IMG/VR virus record: IMGVR_UViG_3300012933_000236
Span: 1 to 64,000 of that record
Source of the DNA: a virus
Taxonomy: Duplodnaviria; Heunggongvirae; Uroviricota; Caudoviricetes
Strand: one strand, 5' to 3'
DNA length: 64,000 nucleotides
Shown: positions 28,821 to 44,041 of the stretch, piece after piece
How the letters are laid out: every line of letters starts with the position of its first letter
Numbering within the stretch: the stretch's first letter is position 1
Notes under the pieces: generated by a model
Told to the model about the DNA's origin: nothing
The model's input: only the letters and a program-made list of their open reading frames with translations
Database searches by the model: none
Translations under genes and position numbers: made by a program

Positions 28821-29072
28821 GTGAAAGCTAAAAACGTAATTGAAACAAAAACAGTAACTACTGGAGTACCTGAACTTCAAATTACATTATCCATTGAAGA
28901 AGCAAAAGCATTGCTTGCGTTAGGTTCTACATCCCGATTTAACCGCATTGATTTTCTTTCATATTCTGATACTGAAAGAAAATATACAGACAAGGTTGTC
29001 AATTGCTCTATAATCTTAGGTGATTTATTTCACGAAGCAAAAAATTTTTTGCATGATCAAGAATTAATTTAA
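28821..29072 (+). CDS. hypothetical protein (last gene of the early block)
   Basis: 83 aa, RBS AAGGAGAA. Confidence 0.5.
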   Translation: MKAKNVIETKTVTTGVPELQITLSIEEAKALLALGSTSRFNRIDFLSYSDTERKYTDKVVNCSIILGDLFHEAKNFLHDQELI

Positions 29073-29083
29073 AAATCCTACCA

Positions 29084-29125
29084 CCCCTTTCAGACTAAAA
29101 ATCTGCTAGGGGTTTTATTTTTATT
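29084..29125 (+). terminator. terminator-like hairpin closing the early block
   Basis: CCCCT...AGGGG stem with an inner CAGA/TCTG stem, followed by TTTTATTTTT. Confidence 0.45.
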
Positions 29126-29199
29126 TCAAAAACCCGCTTGCCTATTTTTTTTGAAAAGCCGCCTTGGGTATTGGTTGCATAAAAACCTAAACTTTATTA

Positions 29200-29345
29200 G
29201 GTGCGACTGAGCAGTCAGCGACTAGACCGTTCAGTCAGAAACTATACTGTTTAGTCACAAATATACCATTCAGTAATAAAATGAACAGTACAGTTATAGA
29301 CTAGACCGTTTAGTATAATTATGACGAAATAGTCAGAAAAATACC
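29200..29345. repeat. iteron-like direct repeats ((C/T)AGTCA(G/C) heptamers; AGACTAGACCGTTYAGT, 2 copies)
   Basis: cagtcag appears three times, plus tagtcac, cagtcac, tagtcag. A 17-nt repeat occurs at about 29218 and 29296. Confidence 0.5.
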
Positions 29346-29381
29346 GCACAGTCACAATTTAAACGCAATAGTTGCAAATAA

Positions 29382-29511
29382 GTTATGCACAGGATATTCA
29401 CAGGTTATACATTATCCACAGATCAGCAAGTATCATGCCAGAGTTATCCACAGGTTATCAGTCTTATATAAGAGTCAAAATGTGGATAACATGCACTACT
29501 GGTGTGGATAA
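29382..29511. promoter_or_regulatory. cluster of four perfect DnaA boxes (TTATCCACA), two on each strand, plus one 8/9 box; origin-like region
   Basis: Boxes at 29412-29420, 29444-29452, 29481-29489 (reverse) and 29503-29511 (reverse); TTATgCACA at 29382-29390. Confidence 0.6.
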
Positions 29512-29620
29512 CTTTTTCTAAGGGGATAGGCGCTTGAAAGGTCAAAACGGCTAAAAAGTGCCTTAAAACCCGTTTAAAAGGCATGTATAAAATTACAGTA
29601 TGGCATGAATTTTGCTCTTC

Positions 29621-29639
29621 GCGTGCGCGTGTGCGCGTT
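29621..29639. repeat. alternating purine-pyrimidine GC tract (CGCGTGCGCGTGTGCGCG), potentially Z-DNA-forming
   Basis: 19-nt GC-only alternating tract inside DNA that is more than 70% AT. Confidence 0.4.
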
Positions 29640-29658
29640 ATTTATAATGCACATAAAT

Positions 29659-29794
29659 GAGAAACAAAAGTTTACATAGGGTTTTCACTGTAAAAATAAT
29701 TCTCCAACATGAAACAAACCCTAAAATATCTGTATAATCAATTACATGGTGAAGCGATAGGGCGCACCTAGTAAACGAGAAACAAAAGTTTACA
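29659..29794. repeat. 18-bp direct repeat GAGAAACAAAAGTTTACA (two copies, 118 bp apart)
   Basis: Copies at 29659-29676 and 29777-29794, in non-coding AT-rich DNA. Confidence 0.45.
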
Positions 29795-30029
29795 GTTCTT
29801 TAACAATTGAGAGTTTTCCATTATTAGTGCAAATAAAAGTACTAATAACCCCAAAACTCACAAATGAAAGTATTAAATGAATATCAAATTACAATCAGAG
29901 AATGCCCTTATTGAAGCAATTCAAAAACGTTTAGATTTTTCATGCTTGGGTTTCTCAGATAATGGCAAGATTTCCCGATTTTGCCGCATTAGAAACGAAT
30001 GGATTATTTATTAAACTGGAATTTATATT

Positions 30030-30191
30030 ATGACAAAATCAAATGTTTTAAATGTTTTCACGATTATCTTTTTATTTATTGTAGCGTTATCTTGTATTTT
30101 CTCAGCCTTAATTTTTAATATCTGGCCATTATGTTTTTTGAGTATCTTATGTTCATTATGTGCATTTGTTTTAATGTTCAACGGTGAATAA
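30030..30191 (+). CDS. small membrane protein (53 aa)
   Basis: MTKSNVLNVFTIIFLFIVALSCIFSALIF... Confidence 0.3.
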   Translation: MTKSNVLNVFTIIFLFIVALSCIFSALIFNIWPLCFLSILCSLCAFVLMFNGE

Positions 30192-30269
30192 TGTTATCTG
30201 ATAATATATTAGAATAACCTAGTATATTATCGGGCTAATATTGGCCGATTCTCAAATGAGATAATCAAA
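30192..30269. repeat. intergenic inverted-repeat element (GATAATATAT, 13 nt, ATATATTATC; ATTATCGGG), copy 1
   Basis: tctgataatatattagaataacctagtatattatcgggc; related copies lie before each of the next three genes. Confidence 0.5.
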
Positions 30270-30527
30270 ATGAAATATACAAAGACTGTATTTATTAAAT
30301 CAGATAATCAATATGATCAATTTAAAGCCCTTAAAATCGGACAATGGGTAAATGGATTATTCCTTGATAATAAATCGGTATTATATCGGGGTCAATTTAT
30401 GGGTTTTGATAATAATGAAAAACCGATTATTAATTTTCGAATTGATAATGCAAAGCATAATCTAGATTGGAAGAATCAATTTATATCTAATAAATATCTC
30501 CGGCAGTTTGCTAAAGTGAAAGCCTGA
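30270..30527 (+). CDS. small hypothetical protein P1 (85 aa) of the repeat-flanked cassette
   Basis: Leader gagataatcaaaatgaaatat is shared with P3. AT-rich codon usage distinct from the rest of the phage. Confidence 0.5.
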   Translation: MKYTKTVFIKSDNQYDQFKALKIGQWVNGLFLDNKSVLYRGQFMGFDNNEKPIINFRIDNAKHNLDWKNQFISNKYLRQFAKVKA

Positions 30528-30601
30528 TAATGTCAGATATAATACCTTAATAATATAGGGTATTATGTCGGATAATATTGTCCGAAATGAAAGTTAATAT
30601 C
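30528..30601. repeat. intergenic repeat element copy 2 (CTGATAATGT...TATTATGTCGGATAATATTGTCCG)
   Basis: Imperfect palindrome TATTATgtcgGATAATA. Confidence 0.45.
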
Positions 30602-30817
30602 ATGAAATTGATTTCCACTATTAATAAGTCAATCGGTTTTCAAGCTAAAGTTTATTATAATGCAGATTATAATGAATATGTCGTTAAATATTATGATGAA
30701 AACAAACGGATTATGTCAGAATCAACTTTTTATTACACAGATGATAAAGAGGATGCAATTAATACTGCATATAAAGAATTAGAATATATGGCAAATAATA
30801 AAGTATTATCGGATTAA
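30578..30817 (+). CDS. small hypothetical protein P2 (start uncertain: 30578, 30590 or 30602)
   Basis: Y-rich core FQAKVYYNADYNEYVVKYYDENKRIM...FYYTDDKEDAINTAYKELEYM. Confidence 0.45.
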   Translation: MSEMKVNIMKLISTINKSIGFQAKVYYNADYNEYVVKYYDENKRIMSESTFYYTDDKEDAINTAYKELEYMANNKVLSD

Positions 30818-30831
30818 ATGGAGATAATCAA

Positions 30832-31056
30832 ATGAAATACATTAAGGCATTTAATATCTGGAATATACCGCAGGAATTAATTAAATATATTCAACCCGGT
30901 CAATATATCTATGCTGGAGATAAAGATAATAAAGGAATTTATCAGGGGATTAAAAAATCGGGTATTATTGTAGTCGCTTGGCAGGGAAATATTAATAATC
31001 AAAAGGATAAAAAACAATACATTAAAACATTAAGGGATTATGCAAAATCAAATTAA
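30832..31056 (+). CDS. small hypothetical protein P3 (74 aa), distant paralog of P1
   Basis: Leader ggagataatcaaatgaaatac nearly identical to that of P1; MKYIKAF... versus MKYTKTVF... Confidence 0.5.
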   Translation: MKYIKAFNIWNIPQELIKYIQPGQYIYAGDKDNKGIYQGIKKSGIIVVAWQGNINNQKDKKQYIKTLRDYAKSN

Positions 31057-31138
31057 ATAGTGTTTTCTGATAATATATCGGTTTAATTATCGGTATATTA
31101 TCGGGATGATATTATCCGAATCAAAATGAGTCTATATT
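31057..31138. repeat. intergenic repeat element copy 3 (CTGATAATATATCGG...ATTATCGGTATATTATCGGGATGATATTATCCG)
   Basis: Several overlapping GATAAT/ATTATCGG half-sites. Confidence 0.5.
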
Positions 31139-31897
31139 ATGACATGCACAAAATCAAGCGCACAATATAATGGTTTTAAATCAGATAATCTATTGAGTAT
31201 TTCAAGCGATGCAAAAACATCAAAAGGGGAAAAACTAGGGTTTCTCACTGGCATTCTATATCTCGCACCATATAAAACAATATCAATTTATAATACTTGC
31301 GCAATGGCTGAAATAGCGGGTTGTGCTGAAGCTTGCTTATATAGTGCAGGGCGTGGGGCTTATTCTAGCGTACAAAATGCCCGTATTAACAAAACAAATT
31401 GGTTTTATCAGGATAGAGAATCATTTATTCATCAATTGATTAAGAATATATATTCTCTTATTTATAAGGCCAATAAGCTAGGATTAACCCCATTGATTCG
31501 ACTCAATGGAACCTCAGATATTAAATGGGAGAATATCGGGTTTGATTATCAGGGAAAGCATTATAATAACATTATGGAATTATTCCCCGATATTCAATTC
31601 TACGATTATACAAAGATTATTAATCGAGATAATCTACCTGCTAATTATGACCTTACATTTTCATATTCAGGTAAACCAGAGTTTACTAAATATGTTAATC
31701 AAGCCATTGATAAAAATATGAGGATCGCAGTAGTATTTAAAGATAAATATAATCTACCTAATGAATTTATGGGTTTAACTGTAGTTAATGGCGATAATTC
31801 AGATATCAGGCACTTAGATGATAATGGGGTCATTGTTGCATTATATGCAAAGGGTAAAGCTAAAAAAGATAATACGGGTTTCGTAGTTAATAATTAA
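31139..31897 (+). CDS. hypothetical protein with Cys cluster (C-x7-C-x3-C)
   Basis: 252 aa with NTCAMAEIAGCAEACLYSAGRG. No family could be assigned. Confidence 0.55.
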   Translation: MTCTKSSAQYNGFKSDNLLSISSDAKTSKGEKLGFLTGILYLAPYKTISIYNTCAMAEIAGCAEACLYSAGRGAYSSVQNARINKTNWFYQDRESFIHQLIKNIYSLIYKANKLGLTPLIRLNGTSDIKWENIGFDYQGKHYNNIMELFPDIQFYDYTKIINRDNLPANYDLTFSYSGKPEFTKYVNQAIDKNMRIAVVFKDKYNLPNEFMGLTVVNGDNSDIRHLDDNGVIVALYAKGKAKKDNTGFVVNN

Positions 31898-32629
31898 TAA
31901 AGGATAATATAATGATTAAAACATTCTTTTATATCATCGGATTATCTTATATAGGTATCTGGTGCATTATTGGTTCAATCTTAATTTGTGCAGTAATTAA
32001 GCATGAGCTAAGGGGTTTTGCAGGGGTTTAAGCGCATAGAATCGTCGGGTTATATCTTAGGGTGTAATCCGGCTTTTTTACGTTATAGCGCATTTAAATG
32101 ATTATAGCTTTATTTAATGCATAGCTTAAACCGATAGCCGTTGACGGTATGCAACAAAAAGAGATTGTCGTTATAGCGCATAAAAAGCGACAATGTAACT
32201 ACTGTATAAAACCACAGCAGTACTACAGAAAAAATTTTCGTCACTGCCCAATATTATATTATCAGTCAAATACATAATACAGTGAAACCGAAATACAATC
32301 ATATGATGCTTCGCATAGTATAAACAAAAGAATAGCAGATATTTTAAAATCCTAGTATTATCACACCGTAAGAAACGTTGTCCCATCAAGCACCCAAGAC
32401 TTACAGCAAATAATAATCCGTATATCTATCCCGTAGGTTTTACCCTAAACAATCACCTAACAATTGCTTCCAAAGCTGTTATCAGCGTATTTACACCCTC
32501 AACAAGCTGATTAAAACCGCTTTAGACAGCCTTAAATTACACTCTACATAGCATCTATGCAGTTAAACCTTATAGTGCCTTCTAGAGCGTTTAAACCCTT
32601 GTACGTGCTCGACACTTGCTTTGATATTT

Positions 32630-32672
32630 ACCCAAAGAAAAAACCCCAAGGCTGTTAAACCAAGGGGTTGTA
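32630..32672 (-). terminator. terminator downstream of the ClpP-like gene
   Basis: Minus strand AACCCCTTGG...CCTTGGGGTT hairpin followed by TTTTTTCTTTGGG. Confidence 0.4.
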
Positions 32673-32687
32673 AATTTTAATTTTTAT

Positions 32688-33401
32688 TTATTTAGAATTA
32701 TCTTCTTTGAGCAGTTGCTTTAGACTTTTAGCTTCAGCTTTAGCTCTTTTCTCTTGCATTTGACTTCTGATCTCTAACCTTCGAATAATCTCTTCAGCAT
32801 CAAACCACATCTCTTTACCCATAATGACTTCTTCAAGTTCTTTATCGGTTAAAAAGTCCCTGTATACACTGTGCATCAATACTCTGACTTGCTTATCTAC
32901 GAATGAAGCGTGAGAAATAACATCAGACTGCTTACCAAAAGCTCCAAACGTAGCAGAGTGAACCATCATTGTAGCGTAAGGCGATACACTAATACTTGGT
33001 GATGCTAGTGCAATAAGAGAAGCCGCTGATGCAGCTACACCATCAATCTCAGCATGTACGTCAGCATCTGTATTCTCAATAGCGTTAATAATTGCGATTG
33101 CACCATCAAGTTGACCACCGTAGCTATTAATCTTCATGAGTACAACATCACCTTCACCCAAGGATTCGATACCTTGTAGCACTGTGCGATAATATTTAGC
33201 TTCTCTGATATTTTCATCTAAAGGAATCTTAATGCAGCGATTAGTCTTTGTACTTTCAAAATAAGGTAAGTATTGTGGATTGCTTCTGATATTTACTTCA
33301 CCTTCGTCATCATCGTCATCATTACGAGCTACTTTGATCTTAAAATTCTTGTAATTACTTACGTTTTGCTGAAAAATCTTTTTATGATTTTGATTTTGCA
33401 T
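32688..33401 (-). CDS. ClpP-like serine protease (S14 family)
   Basis: 237 aa. INSYGGQLDGAIAIINAI, GVAASAASLIALA (Ser nucleophile region) and MVHSATFG (His). Confidence 0.75.
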   Translation of the reverse strand: MQNQNHKKIFQQNVSNYKNFKIKVARNDDDDDEGEVNIRSNPQYLPYFESTKTNRCIKIPLDENIREAKYYRTVLQGIESLGEGDVVLMKINSYGGQLDGAIAIINAIENTDADVHAEIDGVAASAASLIALASPSISVSPYATMMVHSATFGAFGKQSDVISHASFVDKQVRVLMHSVYRDFLTDKELEEVIMGKEMWFDAEEIIRRLEIRSQMQEKRAKAEAKSLKQLLKEDNSK

Positions 33402-34164
33402 TGGTTACTCCTTTAGTATTAAATTGATCAGTTACACTAGACTTAGTAAATTCAGCTTCAATCTCGTCTTCAAAAGCAATTACGAACTCTTTAGTCAAAC
33501 CACTACGAACTACGTGCTCTCTACTGAAGGTAGTAAAGCTACAATCATTGATATTGTACTTCTGGCAAATCTTCTCTAAGTACGTTAGTCCATCCATACC
33601 TTTTTTAACATCAGTTTGTGGACCTGTGTTATCACCACAAAAGATAATTTGAGAGTCATTACCTACACGAGTAGTTAGTGCTTGAATCTCCGGTACAAAT
33701 AAATTCTGACTTTCATCTACAATAATGATGCTGTCATTCCAGCTTCTACCTCTAATAGTTTCCAAGCTACAAATCTCAATTGTTTTATTCTTAAGGTGAA
33801 TCTCTGTAGTTGCTTTACCTAGATAATCCTCAAAGTAGTCAATCATTTGCTGATAAAACGGAAGTAACTTCTCTTCTGCAGTACCCGGAAGAAAACCAAT
33901 ACTTCTACCAGCTAAAGGTTGGTACGCACGAATCAATACAACTTTCTTGATGTCACCGTAATGCAATTTCTTAGCTGCATGATGAATAGCTAACAAAGTT
34001 TTACCAGTACCTGCACTACCACGAGCTACAACTAAAGTATTATACTTTAAAGCTTCCAGTAATTCACTCTGTTTGTCATTCATTGCATGTAATACAGGAA
34101 ACTGACTACGTTGGAACTTCTCTTTTTGTACACGTTGTGATTGCACTTTTTGATTTCTTTTCAT
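33382..34164 (-). CDS. phoH: PhoH-like ATPase
   Basis: 260 aa. ARGSAGTGKTLLAIHHA Walker A, IIVDESQN Walker B. Confidence 0.85.
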   Translation of the reverse strand: MKRNQKVQSQRVQKEKFQRSQFPVLHAMNDKQSELLEALKYNTLVVARGSAGTGKTLLAIHHAAKKLHYGDIKKVVLIRAYQPLAGRSIGFLPGTAEEKLLPFYQQMIDYFEDYLGKATTEIHLKNKTIEICSLETIRGRSWNDSIIIVDESQNLFVPEIQALTTRVGNDSQIIFCGDNTGPQTDVKKGMDGLTYLEKICQKYNINDCSFTTFSREHVVRSGLTKEFVIAFEDEIEAEFTKSSVTDQFNTKGVTNAKSKS

Positions 34165-36186: not shown

Positions 36187-36261
36187 GCTGGAATAGCTCA
36201 TCTGGTAGAGCAACGGTTTTGTACTCCGTAGAGGTGGGTTCGAGTCCTACTTCTAGCACCA
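36187..36261 (+). tRNA. tRNA-Thr(TGT): tRNA-Thr (anticodon TGT)
   Basis: GCTGGAA acceptor, TAGCTCATCTGGTAGAGC D-arm, anticodon loop TTTGTAC, T-arm GTGGG-TTCGAGT-CCTAC, encoded CCA. Confidence 0.75.
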
Positions 36262-36268
36262 AATTTAA

Positions 36269-36343
36269 GCTACTATCGTCTATCGGTTAGGACATCTGGT
36301 TTTCATCCAGACAAGCGGAGTTCGATTCTCCGTAGTAGCTCCA
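36269..36343 (+). tRNA. tRNA-Glu(TTC): tRNA-Glu (anticodon TTC)
   Basis: GCTACTA/TAGTAGC acceptor, anticodon arm TCTGG-TTTTCAT-CCAGA, T-arm CGGAG-TTCGATT-CTCCG, CCA. Confidence 0.75.
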
Positions 36344-36512
36344 GTATTTACTAAAGTCCAGTGGGTCAAATCCCCGTCCTCTGAGTATTGCCCAATGCTT
36401 GGCGGTGGTGTAGAGAAACACATTAGTATTTACGTGTAATCCGCAACTACGTTAAAAGTTCGGCTGCTCAATCGCCAACGGAAAGAGCATAAGGTTACAG
36501 TTGGATAAATTT

Positions 36513-36587
36513 TGGCATATAGCTCAGAGGTAGAGCAAACGGCTGTTAACCGTTCGGTCTGTGGTTCGATCCCACATTTGCCAGCCA
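36513..36587 (+). tRNA. tRNA-Asn(GTT): tRNA-Asn (anticodon GTT)
   Basis: D-arm GCTCAGAGGTAGAGC, anticodon arm AACGG-CTGTTAA-CCGTT, T-arm TGTGG-TTCGATC-CCACA, CCA. One T-T mismatch in the acceptor stem. Confidence 0.65.
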
Positions 36588-36593
36588 ATCAAT

Positions 36594-36671
36594 CTATATA
36601 TAGGCTAGTCTGGTTAAGTCACCTGATTTGGGGTCAGGAAGTCGGTGGTTCGAATCCATCTATATAGACCA
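36594..36671 (+). tRNA. tRNA-Pro(TGG): tRNA-Pro (anticodon TGG)
   Basis: CTATATA/TATATAG acceptor, anticodon arm CCTGA-TTTGGGG-TCAGG, T-arm GGTGG-TTCGAAT-CCATC, CCA. Confidence 0.7.
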
Positions 36672-36678
36672 TATATTT

Positions 36679-36754
36679 ATATCTCTAGCTCAACTGGCAG
36701 AGCAACGGATTCCAAATCCGTAGGTTGTAGGTTCGATTCCTACGGGGTATGCCA
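36679..36754 (+). tRNA. tRNA-Trp(CCA): tRNA-Trp (anticodon CCA)
   Basis: D-arm GCTCAACTGGCAGAGC, anticodon arm ACGGA-TTCCAAA-TCCGT, T-arm GTAGG-TTCGATT-CCTAC, CCA. Acceptor has two G-U pairs. Confidence 0.7.
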
Positions 36755-41092: not shown

Positions 41093-44041
41093 ATGCAATG
41101 GACTGCAGATAACACACCGTCTACTATACAAAGTAAATCTTTAAAATTAAGAGAATTATTTGCAAAAGTAGCTAATGCTTCCTTAGATAAAGGTTTCTCA
41201 AAAGAAGAATCTATTTTTGCAGGTACTAATGCTGTAAAAATTGAAGAGCGTAAAAATCAACCCGCTAAAGTTAAGGCTCCTAAATTACCATCACACGTAG
41301 AAGCACTTAGAAGTTATACGAATCCTTTTGAAGTTGTTTCAAAAGCTGAAGAAATTATAGAAGTTCAAAGTACTGTAAAATCTGCTGAATTTGATGCAGA
41401 TGGACATTTGATATTGTCAATGTCAGATGGTAAGAAGATTAAAACTAAAAATAAAGCTGCAGAACAAAATATTGAACAGAATATTGCCATTGCTCCAAAT
41501 GTTCAGTTATTTTCATCAAATGATAGTGTAAATATTACTCAAGATGGTCAAGCTTTTGATTTGACTACAGTTGGTTCAAATGTAGATGTAATTTCATCTG
41601 ATGGTACTATAACAGTTTCACAAACTGGTGATGTATTTGATTTAAGTGCATCATCTGGAAGTGGAACTGTAAATTTGACATCCTTGGATGGTAGTATTGT
41701 TATCACAGAAAATACTGGTAGTTATGATTTAGCAGTATCAGCAGCTTCCCCTGCTTCCACTTTAGTTGTTCAGGTAAGAAATCAAACGGGTTCTACATTA
41801 ACAAAAGGAACTGTTGTTTATATCAACGGTGCTTCTGGAAATAAACCACTGGTTAGTAAAGCTCTTGCAACTTCGGATGCAACTTCTGCACAAACACTTG
41901 GTTTGATAACTGCAGATATTAATACAAATCAAAATGGTTACGTAACAATCATTGGTGTGGTTGCAGGTTTAAATACATCAGCATTCGCAGAAGGTGTTCA
42001 GTTATATCTAAGCCCTACTGTTGCAGGTACATATACGGCAACAAAACCACATGCTCCTAGTCATCTCGTATATGTTGGTGTTGTAACTAGAAGTCATCAA
42101 AATCAAGGTTCCATCGAAGTTAAAGTTCAAAACGGTTATGAACTCGATGAAATTCATGATGTACAAATTGTTAATCCTACTGATGGTCAGATAATTGCAT
42201 ATGATTCTGATACACAACTTTGGAAAAATATTGATGCACCTGCAAATTCTGTAACATCAGTAACAGCAACTGCTCCAATTAATAGTACTGGTGGATTAAC
42301 TCCTATAATTTCTATCACTGAAGCTACCACAACTTCTTCTGGTAGTATGAGTGCTGGTGATAAATTAAAGCTTGATGGTATTAGCGTTGGCGCACAAGTT
42401 AACAGTATAACTTCTGTAGCTGGTAAAACTGGTGATGTAACTTTAGATAAATCAGATGTTGGTTTATCTAATGTAGATAATACCGCTGATTCTGCTAAAA
42501 GTGTAGCCAGTGCATCTACTCTAACTACAGCACGTTTAATTAACGGTGTATCTTTTAATGGTTCTGCAGATATTACTATTGCAGATTCAACCAAGCAACC
42601 TCTGGATAGTGATTTAACAGCAATTGCAGCTTTAACAGGAACCTCTGGTTTACTTAAGAAAACCGCAACAAATACTTGGACTCTAGATACAAATAATTAT
42701 GTTACCAGTTCAGGAGTAACATCTGTAAATGCTACAGGTACTGTAAGTGGTTTAACATTCAGTGGTACAGTTACATCAACTGGTGACTTAACATTATCGG
42801 GTCAACTAGAAGTTTTACCTTCAGATTTTCAAAGTCAAGCTGCTAATTTAGTTTTAGCATCTCCAAATTCTACAACTGGTAAACCTACTTTCAGAGCTTT
42901 GGTGACTTCTGATATTCCAAACTTAGATGCTTCTAAGATTACAAGTGGTACTATTGACGCTGCACGTTTACCTAGTTATATAGACGATGTTCTAGAGTTT
43001 TCTAATTTAGCAAGCTTTCCATCTACAGGTGAAACTGGAAAATTATATGTAGCACTAGATACTAATAAAGTTTATCGTTGGAGTGGTAGTACTTATATTT
43101 TTATTACAAGTGGAGCCGTTGATAGTGTAGCTGGTAAAACTGGTGTTGTTACATTAAATAGTTCTGATGTAGGATTAAGCAATGTAGAAAATAAAAGTTC
43201 ATCTACAATCCGTAGTGAAATTACTAGCACCAATGTAACTACAGCATTAGGTTTCACACCATATAATGCCACAAATCCTAACGGATATATTACTACTGAT
43301 AGTAATATCACTGGTACAGCTTCTAATGTTACTGGTACTATTTCTACATCAAATGGTGGTACTGGATTAACAAGTTATACAGCAGGTGACATATTATATG
43401 CATCTGATTCAAATACATTGACTAAATTACCAATTGGTTCAGTAGGAGATGTGTTACAGGTTGATAGCGATGGTAAACCAAGCTGGTTGGCATCAAGCTC
43501 AGGTTCAACTTTAACAGTTGCTGATTCTGCTCCTAGTGATCCATCATCAGGAGATGAATGGTTAAACACAACCGATGGTATTAAATACACCTATGTATCT
43601 GATGGTACTTCTGATCAATGGGTAGAACTTGAGAGTTTACTATCTATAAATAATAATGTAAGTATTTACTCAAATGAATATGTTTTAACAGGCACAACAA
43701 ATGATGACGTTGAAAAAGAAATATTTGTAAACGGAATAGCTGACAATAGAATTGGTATAGCTACTAATACTTTTATTTATTATACTTTAGATATTGCTTG
43801 TAAGAGTACTGATTCTAGTACTGATTTTGCTGCCTTCTATGTAAAAGGTGCTGCCACTAATAATGCAGATGTTGTATCAGATGCTGGTTCTTTATATGAA
43901 ATTGTTGTAACTAGAAGTAATCCCAATATATTAATTGACGTTAGAGTAAATTCTACAACGAAAACATTGAATGTATATGTAACTGGTCTTCCCGGAAAAA
44001 CATTTTCTTGGAAAACAGCATTAAAAATAGTAGAGGTTTAA
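41093..44041 (+). CDS. large fibre protein with Phage_fiber_2-type repeats (tail or head fibre)
   Basis: 982 aa, S/T/G-rich. TTARLINGVSFNGSADITIA matches the phage tail-fibre repeat. Many beta-rich repeats. Confidence 0.6.
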   Translation: MQWTADNTPSTIQSKSLKLRELFAKVANASLDKGFSKEESIFAGTNAVKIEERKNQPAKVKAPKLPSHVEALRSYTNPFEVVSKAEEIIEVQSTVKSAEFDADGHLILSMSDGKKIKTKNKAAEQNIEQNIAIAPNVQLFSSNDSVNITQDGQAFDLTTVGSNVDVISSDGTITVSQTGDVFDLSASSGSGTVNLTSLDGSIVITENTGSYDLAVSAASPASTLVVQVRNQTGSTLTKGTVVYINGASGNKPLVSKALATSDATSAQTLGLITADINTNQNGYVTIIGVVAGLNTSAFAEGVQLYLSPTVAGTYTATKPHAPSHLVYVGVVTRSHQNQGSIEVKVQNGYELDEIHDVQIVNPTDGQIIAYDSDTQLWKNIDAPANSVTSVTATAPINSTGGLTPIISITEATTTSSGSMSAGDKLKLDGISVGAQVNSITSVAGKTGDVTLDKSDVGLSNVDNTADSAKSVASASTLTTARLINGVSFNGSADITIADSTKQPLDSDLTAIAALTGTSGLLKKTATNTWTLDTNNYVTSSGVTSVNATGTVSGLTFSGTVTSTGDLTLSGQLEVLPSDFQSQAANLVLASPNSTTGKPTFRALVTSDIPNLDASKITSGTIDAARLPSYIDDVLEFSNLASFPSTGETGKLYVALDTNKVYRWSGSTYIFITSGAVDSVAGKTGVVTLNSSDVGLSNVENKSSSTIRSEITSTNVTTALGFTPYNATNPNGYITTDSNITGTASNVTGTISTSNGGTGLTSYTAGDILYASDSNTLTKLPIGSVGDVLQVDSDGKPSWLASSSGSTLTVADSAPSDPSSGDEWLNTTDGIKYTYVSDGTSDQWVELESLLSINNNVSIYSNEYVLTGTTNDDVEKEIFVNGIADNRIGIATNTFIYYTLDIACKSTDSSTDFAAFYVKGAATNNADVVSDAGSLYEIVVTRSNPNILIDVRVNSTTKTLNVYVTGLPGKTFSWKTALKIVEV

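Follow-up and report, generated by a model that had tools for sequence, protein, structure and literature searches.

Why would several small genes that follow one another in a phage genome each be headed by the same inverted repeat? This question is raised by positions 30192-31897 of a 64,000-nucleotide stretch of a Caudoviricetes phage (IMG/VR record IMGVR_UViG_3300012933_000236, positions 1 to 64,000; the whole stretch is here called the window). A preliminary description of this locus reported four consecutive plus-strand genes, P1 to P4, each preceded by a related element with GATAAT-type half-sites, and proposed either a regulon with a common operator or promoter or a set of duplicated moron-like units with individual control elements. 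We find that the half-sites belong to an element of two abutting hairpins whose structure is conserved on the sense strand among 58 distinct copies. The reading that we prefer, at a probability of roughly 0.45 and hence somewhat below even odds, is that the repeats are a portable intercistronic leader of about 70 nt which acts post-transcriptionally as sense-strand RNA and is fused to a ribosome-binding site.

Results

The four consecutive plus-strand open reading frames (ORFs) are present as described, at 30270-30527, 30578/30587/30602-30817, 30832-31056 and 31139-31897 (85, 79/76/71, 74 and 252 aa, the alternatives referring to possible starts of P2). The half-sites are indeed enriched: TATATTATCGG, with up to one mismatch, occurs 8 times against 1.1 expected, a count reached by 0/100 shuffles, and CTGATAATATAT occurs 5 times against 0.9 expected, again without any shuffle reaching the count. 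An element before every gene, as had been proposed, is found for P1, P2 and P4 only. P3 has instead a 14-nt leader and the remnant of a 3' arm.

Each full copy (about 70 nt in the window, 57-77 nt overall) is composed, in this order, of a 7-nt flank, a first hairpin (H1), a second hairpin (H2) that follows with a gap of 0 nt, an A-rich stretch with the Shine-Dalgarno sequence, and the ATG. The flank has the consensus TRYTATC, is single-stranded and is preceded by YAG (YAG-TRYTATC); in the window it takes the forms TGTTATC, TAATGTC and TGTTTTC. While H1 measures 13-16 bp in the window copies and 10-16 bp over all copies, H2 is a small hairpin of 5-6 bp with the consensus GGnTAATATTrnCC. The A-rich stretch ends in GAG or GAAAG, and the ATG lies about 20 nt after H2.

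Element E1 (30192-30261, plus strand) precedes P1 and scores 81.7 bits (E = 2.9e-18) with the covariance model (CM) described below. Its flank TGTTATC (30192-30198) directly abuts the stop codon of the upstream ORF (30189-30191), its H1 stem is formed by 30199-30212 and 30219-30232 around the loop AATAAC, and its H2 stem by 30233-30237 and 30242-30246 (GGCTA-ATAT-TGGCC); an A-rich spacer with GAG then leads to the ATG at 30270. Hereby, the "perfect 10-nt" inverted repeat noted earlier turns out to be nine Watson-Crick pairs followed by T·G, which lie within a 14-15-bp stem (30199-30212/30219-30232) with a loop of only 6 nt. The extent given for the element at that time was too small, since H2, directly after H1, had been overlooked. 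E2 (30528-30597, plus strand; 52.3 bits, E = 1.4e-10) precedes P2 and carries the variant flank TAATGTC, an H1 stem at 30537-30549/30556-30568 with the loop ATAATA, and an H2 stem at 30569-30574/30579-30584 (CGGATA-ATAT-TGTCCG). At 30524-30536 lies an additional mini-hairpin that overlaps with the stop codon of P1, and the E2 ortholog in Limnohabitans phage DC31 shows compensatory changes in H2 (CGGG...CCCG). E4 (31061-31130, plus strand; 79 bits, E = 1.5e-17) precedes P4, a member of the GP88 family, and has the flank TGTTTTC, an H1 stem at 31068-31082/31089-31103 with the loop TTAATT, and an H2 stem at 31104-31108/31113-31117 (GGATG-ATAT-TATCC). Pair 57-68 of the alignment is G·U in E4 and A-U in the other copies.

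Two further stretches are decayed copies. The remnant e3 (30804-30837, plus strand; 13.4 bits) retains a 3'-arm fragment, GTATTATCGG, which now codes for the end of P2 and is directly followed by the shared leader ATTAAATGGAGATAATCAA and the ATG of P3; it has neither H2 nor a 5' arm, the intergenic leader of P3 amounts to 14 nt, and this leader is nearly identical to that of P1. A degenerate element-like stretch (GATAATAAATCGGTATTATATCGGGG...) lies inside the P1 coding sequence at 30358-30439 (plus strand; 23.8 bits, E = 0.0042), and weaker CM matches occur at the same spot in the P1 orthologs of two relatives, L002 and L003. The half-site fragments previously seen within coding sequence are real, and are represented by this degenerate copy and by the truncated copy at 30804-30837.

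Eleven copies, drawn from the window, from DC31 and from three uncultured relatives, were aligned with MAFFT to build the CM. Searching the 64-kb window with it returned exactly three full copies, all on the plus strand (E = 1e-10 to 3e-18), and the H2 motif is confined to these three elements. In the whole 76-kb DC31 genome three copies were found, all in the same cassette and co-oriented with the genes. To these we added copies from uncultured phages, taken from 79 loci with GP88 homologs and from loci retrieved with the H2 15-mer, so that the search of the genome and of related phages, which had been suggested at the outset, yields 3 copies in the window, 3 in DC31 and 58 distinct copies in all.

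In the 11-copy alignment 92% of the stem cells pair, compared with at most 52% when the partners are slid against each other; for the 58 copies the values are 95.5% and at most 47%. Both partners have changed in 13 of the 19 pairs, and the H2 pair 55-70 is seen as CG, AU, UA and GC. A check that is independent of the alignment is provided by at least 12 unrelated H1 sequences (CTGATAATAT.., CCTATAGTGCC.., CTCAAGGCCTA.., CTGCAAGCCC.., CTTTTAAAGCC.. and others), each of which forms a hairpin framed by the same flank and H2. The wobble pairs are strongly one-sided, with 183 U(5')·G(3') against 12 G·U, and reading the same columns on the minus strand turns each U·G into a C·A mismatch, so that only 80.5% of the cells pair. 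In line with this asymmetry, the plus strands of the window copies fold at -23.3 to -25.5 kcal/mol and their reverse complements at -13.4 to -17.7 kcal/mol (E1: -24.2 against -17.7; E2: -23.3; E4: -25.5 against -13.4). Relative to shuffled sequence, the fold z-scores range from -3.9 to -5.1 (-5.1, -4.7 and -3.9 for E1, E2 and E4). Within this variable framework certain positions are fixed, namely T1, T4, T6 and C7 of the flank, a G in the H1 3' arm (58/58 copies; its partner is U in 47 and C in 11) and TAATATT of H2, which is invariant in 56-58 of the 58 copies. The one-sided wobble together with the loss of pairing on the minus strand implies that the functional structure lies on the sense strand, and thus points to an element that would act there, most simply as RNA and not as a DNA operator. 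Shuffles, fold z-scores and CM E-values rule out that the repeats are ordinary AT-rich low-complexity or chance sequence, the finding that would have spoken against the initial proposal.

The position of the element relative to genes is likewise constrained. All copies are co-oriented with their genes. Upstream, the distance from the end of a same-strand ORF to the flank is -3 to +11 nt (median 5) in 52 of 57 copies. Downstream, a purine-rich Shine-Dalgarno sequence precedes the next ATG, whose distance from H2 is typically 19-23 nt (median 19, range 3-25). Given these stop and ATG distances, the element fills the intercistronic gap, and a separate promoter would therefore fall within the upstream coding sequence. 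The downstream genes are diverse, with at least 27 different N-termini.

Comparison of related loci, which carry 1, 2, 3 or 5 copies, reveals that the gene content varies at the element borders. With E denoting an element, the window, DC31 and L018 share the layout E-P1-E-P2-(remnant)-P3-E-P4. In L002 an additional 117-aa gene lies at the P2-P3 junction, and the e3 junction is the site of an extra gene of 117-119 aa in relatives; in L003 the first element lies one small ORF farther upstream. L005 and L088 have a new 55-aa gene between the last element and P4. L124 reads [77-aa protein with the IGQW motif of P1]-E-P2-[119 aa]-E-[new 66 aa]-P4, and L120, with five copies in 1.6 kb, reads E-[small ORF]-E-P1-E-[new 83 aa]-E-P2-...-E-[new 94 aa]-P4. 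Hereby, the new 83-aa gene of L120 is bounded by an element on either side, while the new genes of L124, L005 and L088 lie immediately 3' of an element. Whole-gene differences at element borders are thus seen among the window, DC31, L002, L003, L005, L088, L120 and L124, from which it follows that units of one element and one small gene have been gained, lost and duplicated at the repeats.

Traces of such gain, loss and duplication of cassettes are also found in the window itself, in the form of the two decayed copies and of the relationship between P1 and P3. Both genes share the leader GAGATAATCAA(A)ATGAAATA, as noted before, and a duplication had been suggested on this ground. P1 (85 aa, 30270-30527, plus strand) matches phrog_21585 over its full length (E = 0.007), the family to which P3 (74 aa, 30832-31056, plus strand) also belongs. 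P1 and the P3 family align end to end at 35% identity with MKY, GQW, DNK and LR-AK in common (BLASTP E = 0.05), so that the two proteins are, on family assignment and alignment, distant paralogs. The P3 family is confined to DC31-like phages. The proposal of duplicated moron-like units with individual control elements therefore agrees well with the at least 27 N-termini, the gene gain and loss at the borders and the P1/P3 paralogy.

The remaining two proteins can be assigned as well; the preliminary statement that none of the four is assignable to a known family from sequence is wrong at least for P4. P2 matches phrog_7884 (E = 2e-13, residues 2-57 on profile positions 5-58). Alternative starts exist at 30587 (76 aa) and at the TTG 30578 (79 aa); judged from the other leaders and from the PHROG alignment, the best-supported start is probably the ATG at 30602, giving a protein of 71 aa (30602-30817, plus strand). 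P4 (252 aa, 31139-31897, plus strand) matches Pfam PF17338, GP88, with E = 2.5e-45 and 155.6 bits (gathering cutoff 24.4), residues 25-251 covering profile positions 9-229 of 230. Its C-x7-C-x3-C cluster, recognized before, is a cysteine triad (C54-x7-C62-x3-C66) that is invariant in 36 homologs, and the protein forms a partial beta/alpha barrel. For P1, P2 and P3 we obtained no match in Pfam, the PDB or PADLOC and no fold match.

Beyond the window the element occurs in related and more distant phages from freshwater. The closest cultured relative, and the sole close one, is Limnohabitans phage DC31 (PQ492658), a siphovirus of 76.2 kb that matches window positions 29000-33500 at 80% nucleotide identity across 70%; in other cultured phages the element was not found. 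The hosts of DC31-like phages are Limnohabitans, a major genus of lake bacterioplankton (PMC12195039). About 47 of 63 metagenome matches were scored with a stable H1, and a handful, which lack the conserved flank, may be chance matches. Judged from record names, the matches stem mostly from JGI freshwater samples. In the distant phages (about 43% G+C) the copy usually lies 0.3-0.8 kb downstream of a GP88 gene; an obligatory linkage to GP88 is ruled out by 18 of the 44 loci with at least 2.5 kb of upstream sequence, which show no GP88 homolog in the stretch examined. The ORFs located 3' of the element in the distant phages are again short (MDYYLAF...). Searching 185,579 bacterial and archaeal species genomes with the pattern TTATC-N26-46-GGGCTAATATTGGCC gave just 10 chance matches, all without H1, and a host origin of the element is ruled out by the lack of a genuine genomic match of the exact form searched. 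With Rfam 15, its ribozymes and phage cis elements included, no relevant CM match was obtained for window positions 29000-32800 at E up to 5, nor for four loci with distant variants at E up to 1. The element thus appears to be an undescribed structured-RNA motif that is absent from Rfam.

The cassette lies in a distinctive part of the phage genome. The window has a G+C content of about 36%, and the 30-32 kb interval has the lowest value of the window, 28%. P1-P4 form the tail end of a long plus-strand block of small genes, which halts at a canonical intrinsic terminator identified by terminator scan (plus strand; stem 32044-32073 followed by TTTTTT, to 32083). Beyond it lie a ClpP-like gene and a PhoH gene, convergent to the plus-strand block. 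The cassette opens with two plus-strand ORFs, a 45-aa ORF (29877-30014) and a hydrophobic 53-aa ORF (30030-30191), both 92-100% identical in L002 and L018 and both without a family match in Pfam or PHROG. A further hydrophobic plus-strand ORF of 39 aa (31912-32031), predicted by the source's gene caller, is kept in relatives; very hydrophobic mini-ORFs (53 and 39 aa) conserved among relatives thus lie on both sides of the cassette.

Upstream of the cassette, a non-coding stretch of about 800 nt (29072-29876) is kept in DC31 and in L001 (2600-3530). The window has four perfect DnaA-box 9-mers (TTATCCACA), all of which fall inside one 100-bp segment of this stretch, at 29412 and 29444 on the plus strand and at 29481 and 29503 on the minus strand, and iteron-like repeats CAGTCAG(C/A)(G/A)ACTAGACCGTTCAGT occur upstream of them at 29212, 29232 and 29291. 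By its appearance the stretch looks like a phage replication origin. It also holds a GC hairpin, CGCGTGCGCGTGTGCGCG, followed by TTATTTAT (29620-29645), and two 96% identical copies of TAAA(T/C)GAGAAACAAAAGTTTACA (29654-29676 and 29772-29794), the second of which is kept in DC31. It is possible that these signals (29620-29794) are a terminator and a promoter which make 29.8-32.05 kb a separate transcription unit. On the other side of the cassette, the 650-nt convergent intergenic region between the plus-strand terminator and the ClpP-like gene contains three sequences of the type CGTTATAGCGCAT(T/A)(T/A)AAA (32081-32098, 32169-32186 and 32578-32595). Farther away, the window encodes a cluster of five tRNAs (Thr, Glu, Asn, Pro and Trp; 36187-36754) and a separate tRNA-Arg(TCT) at 336-410, a set that fits a phage of about 37% G+C in a host of 59% G+C; the position of the Trp tRNA is taken by Tyr in DC31. 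A 982-aa ORF without a Pfam match (41093-44041) lies directly 3' of a Mu-type portal gene.

Discussion

The existence, structure, strand, position and portability of the element and the variation of its cassette are direct observations, from which we infer a binding partner and an effect on the mRNA. In the mechanism that we favour, a polycistronic early or accessory transcript, ending at the 32044-32083 terminator, would carry every copy. Each copy would be a double hairpin recognized by a protein, would mark a processing or stabilizing boundary for the adjoining cistrons and would set up translation of the gene that it heads. At the DNA level, 70-bp repeats spaced every few hundred bases could act as points of homologous recombination, and units of one element and one small gene might be duplicated, inserted and lost there as a by-product of recombination between copies. 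Such recombination would explain the P1/P3 paralogs, the decayed copies and the differences in gene content.

Several points weigh against this leader model. Function is deduced here from position and conservation alone. T7 RNase III sites typically have an internal loop, which the regular stem of H1 lacks, and at its shortest, 10-11 bp (L138), H1 is small for an RNase III substrate; H1 and a stacked H2 would together total 19-21 bp in the window copies. The 58 copies of alignment A3 were aligned by fitting them to the model, and many of them are phylogenetically related; the covariation of H2 rests chiefly on one base pair, and most distant copies owe their exact H2 15-mer in part to ascertainment by the pattern search. 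A near-invariant TAATATT and flank would also be expected from a DNA-binding or sigma-like factor. Moreover, the distant phages have one copy in the 4-14-kb stretches examined, which fits a special site such as a promoter, an antiterminator or an origin better than a general intercistronic signal.

Which other readings could account for these features? Unlikely, yet to be taken seriously, is a composite promoter, possibly with an attenuator, of the kind found in the promoter-early stem-loops (PeSLs) of T4-type phages. Here, TAATAT of H2 would be a -10 hexamer that the host RNA polymerase reads in the absence of a -35, perhaps helped by a phage factor; transcription would start just after H2 and yield a 15-20-nt leader with a Shine-Dalgarno sequence, and H1 would attenuate or terminate transcripts from upstream. 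TAATAT indeed ends 28 nt before the P1 ATG, TAATATT is present in 56-58 of 58 copies, and the units behave comparatively like PeSL cassettes (PMC2839356, PMC4122927), whose stem-loops may sit upstream of the promoter boxes or overlap them. The GP88 phages L024, L025 and L028 moreover carry TTGACA-N17-TATATT with a hairpin in the spacer (ACCCTATTAAATAGGGT; about 3925-3965 in L024/L025 and 3935-3975 in L028) directly upstream of GP88, a classical PeSL-type arrangement that is unlike the element described here. In the element itself, however, no conserved -35-like hexamer exists 16-18 bp upstream, a position that falls into the variable loop and arm of H1, and there is neither a TG extension nor a U-tract after H1 or H2. 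E4 (TGATAT) has a G at the essential -11 and L003 a C at -7; hereby, the A-to-G exchange of E4 keeps a G·U pair although it would destroy the -10. The bases flanking the hexamer covary so as to pair and the U·G pair 56-69 is strand-specific, neither of which a promoter needs, and sigma-70-like matches in the region (58) stay at the shuffled expectation (54.5). A further reading is a plain operator, in which a dimeric regulator such as the HU-like protein would bind GATAAT and ATTATC half-sites on double-stranded DNA and so define a small regulon. Inverted-repeat half-sites are kept among E1, E2, E4 and their DC31 orthologs and the AATATT core of H2 is palindromic, but the H1 arms of other phages differ wholly in sequence and are still complementary, the complementarity spans the entire "spacer" down to a 5-9-nt loop, the 183 U·G wobbles render the two DNA half-sites non-equivalent, and the half-site spacing varies. 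An operator is thus hardly to be expected. The common operator or promoter of the preliminary description is not borne out, given the covarying stems, the sense-only wobbles, the lack of conserved -35/-10 boxes and promoter matches at the shuffled level.

Quite improbable, but still an RNA reading, is a cis-acting signal that modifies RNA polymerase by antitermination or anti-pausing, like HK022 put or a nut site with a boxA-like flank and a hairpin. The element has the required features of a sense-strand RNA of about 60-70 nt with two adjacent stem-loops and a conserved single-stranded 5' motif, put RNAs being of about 70 nt with two stem-loops in phage early operons (PMC9378689), and the single copy in the stretches examined for distant phages would suit this function. 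Against it, a single operon of DC31-type phages holds 3-5 copies in 1-1.6 kb, and the element is tightly coupled to a Shine-Dalgarno sequence and an ATG at fixed spacing, a link for which put and nut sites have no need. Furthermore, the bulges and the triplex of put are missing from the regular stems, and the last copy lies about 0.9 kb ahead of the operon's own terminator, which faces convergent genes. We hold it to be slightly less probable still that the structure serves as a DNA hairpin or cruciform for recombination or mobility (attC-like, IS200/IS605 or REP-RAYT-like, REP denoting repetitive extragenic palindromic sequences) that moves small genes, with any effect on expression being secondary. 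Gene gain and loss exactly at the element borders would be explained, and DNA hairpins tolerate G·T pairs. A strand-specific hairpin with a 5' guide-like flank is also reminiscent of the ends of single-strand transposons and of REPs. Nevertheless, no integrase, HUH/Y1 transposase or RAYT was detected among the cassette proteins with Pfam, PHROG and PADLOC, the constant orientation relative to transcription and the ribosome-binding site at a fixed distance argue for a role in expression, and ordinary homologous recombination of 70-bp repeats suffices for the shuffling (PMC2839356).

A number of more specific identities were rejected. The candidate -10 boxes of a sigma-70 promoter (TGATAATAT, TATATT/TATTAT in the 3' arm, TATAAT in the 5' arm of E2 and TAATAT in H2) have neither a -35 box nor conservation among orthologs, and a promoter-like 10/12 match at 30516-30543 is not kept in DC31. 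A general phage promoter is ruled out, as the window has the H2 motif in these elements only. A promoter of a phage single-subunit RNA polymerase would need an enzyme of which neither the window nor the annotation of DC31 gave any sign; the large ORFs encode DNA polymerase A, a primase-helicase, ligases, terminase and portal. In the most frequent distant variant (L121 1349-1411 and about 40 similar loci) the H1 3' arm and the start of H2 read GGGGCACTATAGGGC, which contains the T7-class promoter core CACTATAGGG. We read this as a coincidence, because of the missing polymerase and because CACTATAGGG belongs to just one of the at least 12 H1 sequences. Intrinsic terminators were excluded since the scan gave no match at E1, E2 or E4, where H2 is followed by GAUUCUC, GAAAUG or GAAUCAA and not by a U-tract. 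CUGAUAA resembles a hammerhead core and lacks its essential G, and a pseudoknot between flank and H1 loop, or a helix of the flank with GAU after H2, is complementary in few copies and sterically unlikely.

How does the element compare with known systems? At the RNA level it would be analogous to the RNase III sites of T7 and to 5'/3' stabilizer hairpins, and at the genome level to the PeSLs of T4-like phages. The T7 and T3 RNase III sites (R0.3-R1.3) are single long hairpins between early genes, with an internal loop as the place of cleavage. Like them, the element consists of related hairpins between the cistrons of a polycistronic phage transcript, just upstream of the next ribosome-binding site, is conserved as a structure and would act at the level of the sense RNA; unlike them, it has in H1 a regular stem of 10-16 bp that is followed by a second small hairpin. 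REPs can stabilize upstream mRNA, and integron attC sites mark mobile single-gene cassettes. Similar to REPs, bacterial interspersed mosaic elements (BIMEs) and attC sites, the element is a structure-conserved and sequence-variable hairpin at gene or cassette borders; in contrast to REP and attC sites, it has no RAYT or integrase, lies upstream of a gene together with a ribosome-binding site, and has no genuine bacterial copy of the form searched. With the mobile regulatory cassettes known as PeSLs from T4-like phages (Arbiol et al. 2010, PMC2839356; Comeau et al. 2014, PMC4122927), it shares repeated intergenic motifs of about 70-100 bp with a stem-loop ahead of small, functionally uncharacterized genes in an AT-rich region of high plasticity, gene insertion, deletion and replacement at the motif borders in close relatives, and a motif that travels with the gene. 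PeSLs combine a strong sigma-70 -35/-10 promoter with a terminating stem-loop with a G/C tract, whereas the present element shows no conserved -35/-10 and no U-tract but two abutting hairpins that pair on the sense strand, and it resides in a 76-kb Limnohabitans siphovirus instead of a T4-like myovirus. It is thus not a member of the PeSLs, as their defining sigma-70 promoter is absent. PeSLs have been assayed for promoter and terminator activity with reporter fusions, and for mini-circles by inverse PCR (PMC2839356). The putL and putR sites of HK022 resemble it in their size of about 70 nt, in their side-by-side stem-loops and in a structure that is more conserved than the sequence, and act in cis, as nascent transcripts of early phage operons, by binding the beta-prime zinc-binding domain of RNA polymerase and suppressing terminators (PMC9378689). 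They differ by their bulges and triplex and by occurring as two copies just downstream of early promoters, uncoupled from a start codon, compared to up to five copies in 1.6 kb that are each fused to a ribosome-binding site.

Conclusions

Going one step further, the element might represent a new class of phage cis-regulatory RNA, a two-hairpin module that is found across many freshwater phages and is bound by a specific host or phage protein; we put this forward tentatively, as the odds are clearly against it. Recognition would then proceed via the UAAUAUU top of the second hairpin, the invariant G of H1 with its U·G wobble and the YAG-TRYTATC flank, and the recognizing partner could be a dedicated endoribonuclease, a translational regulator or, as for put, RNA polymerase. 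If so, the element would be a transferable "expression plug" for acquired genes of a 37% G+C phage in a 59% G+C host.

The element is a well-supported candidate for a structured RNA outside Rfam for which a cultured phage-host pair is available, and it provides an alignable marker of cassette borders for freshwater phages of a group with global distribution. The accessory regions of phages are where new genes arise, and how such genes are wired for expression and moved is little known outside the T4-like phages. If the element is a portable module for processing or translation, the concept of mobile regulatory cassettes, which the PeSLs introduced for DNA promoters, would come to include RNA structures, and the element could be used as an insulator part in polycistronic constructs.

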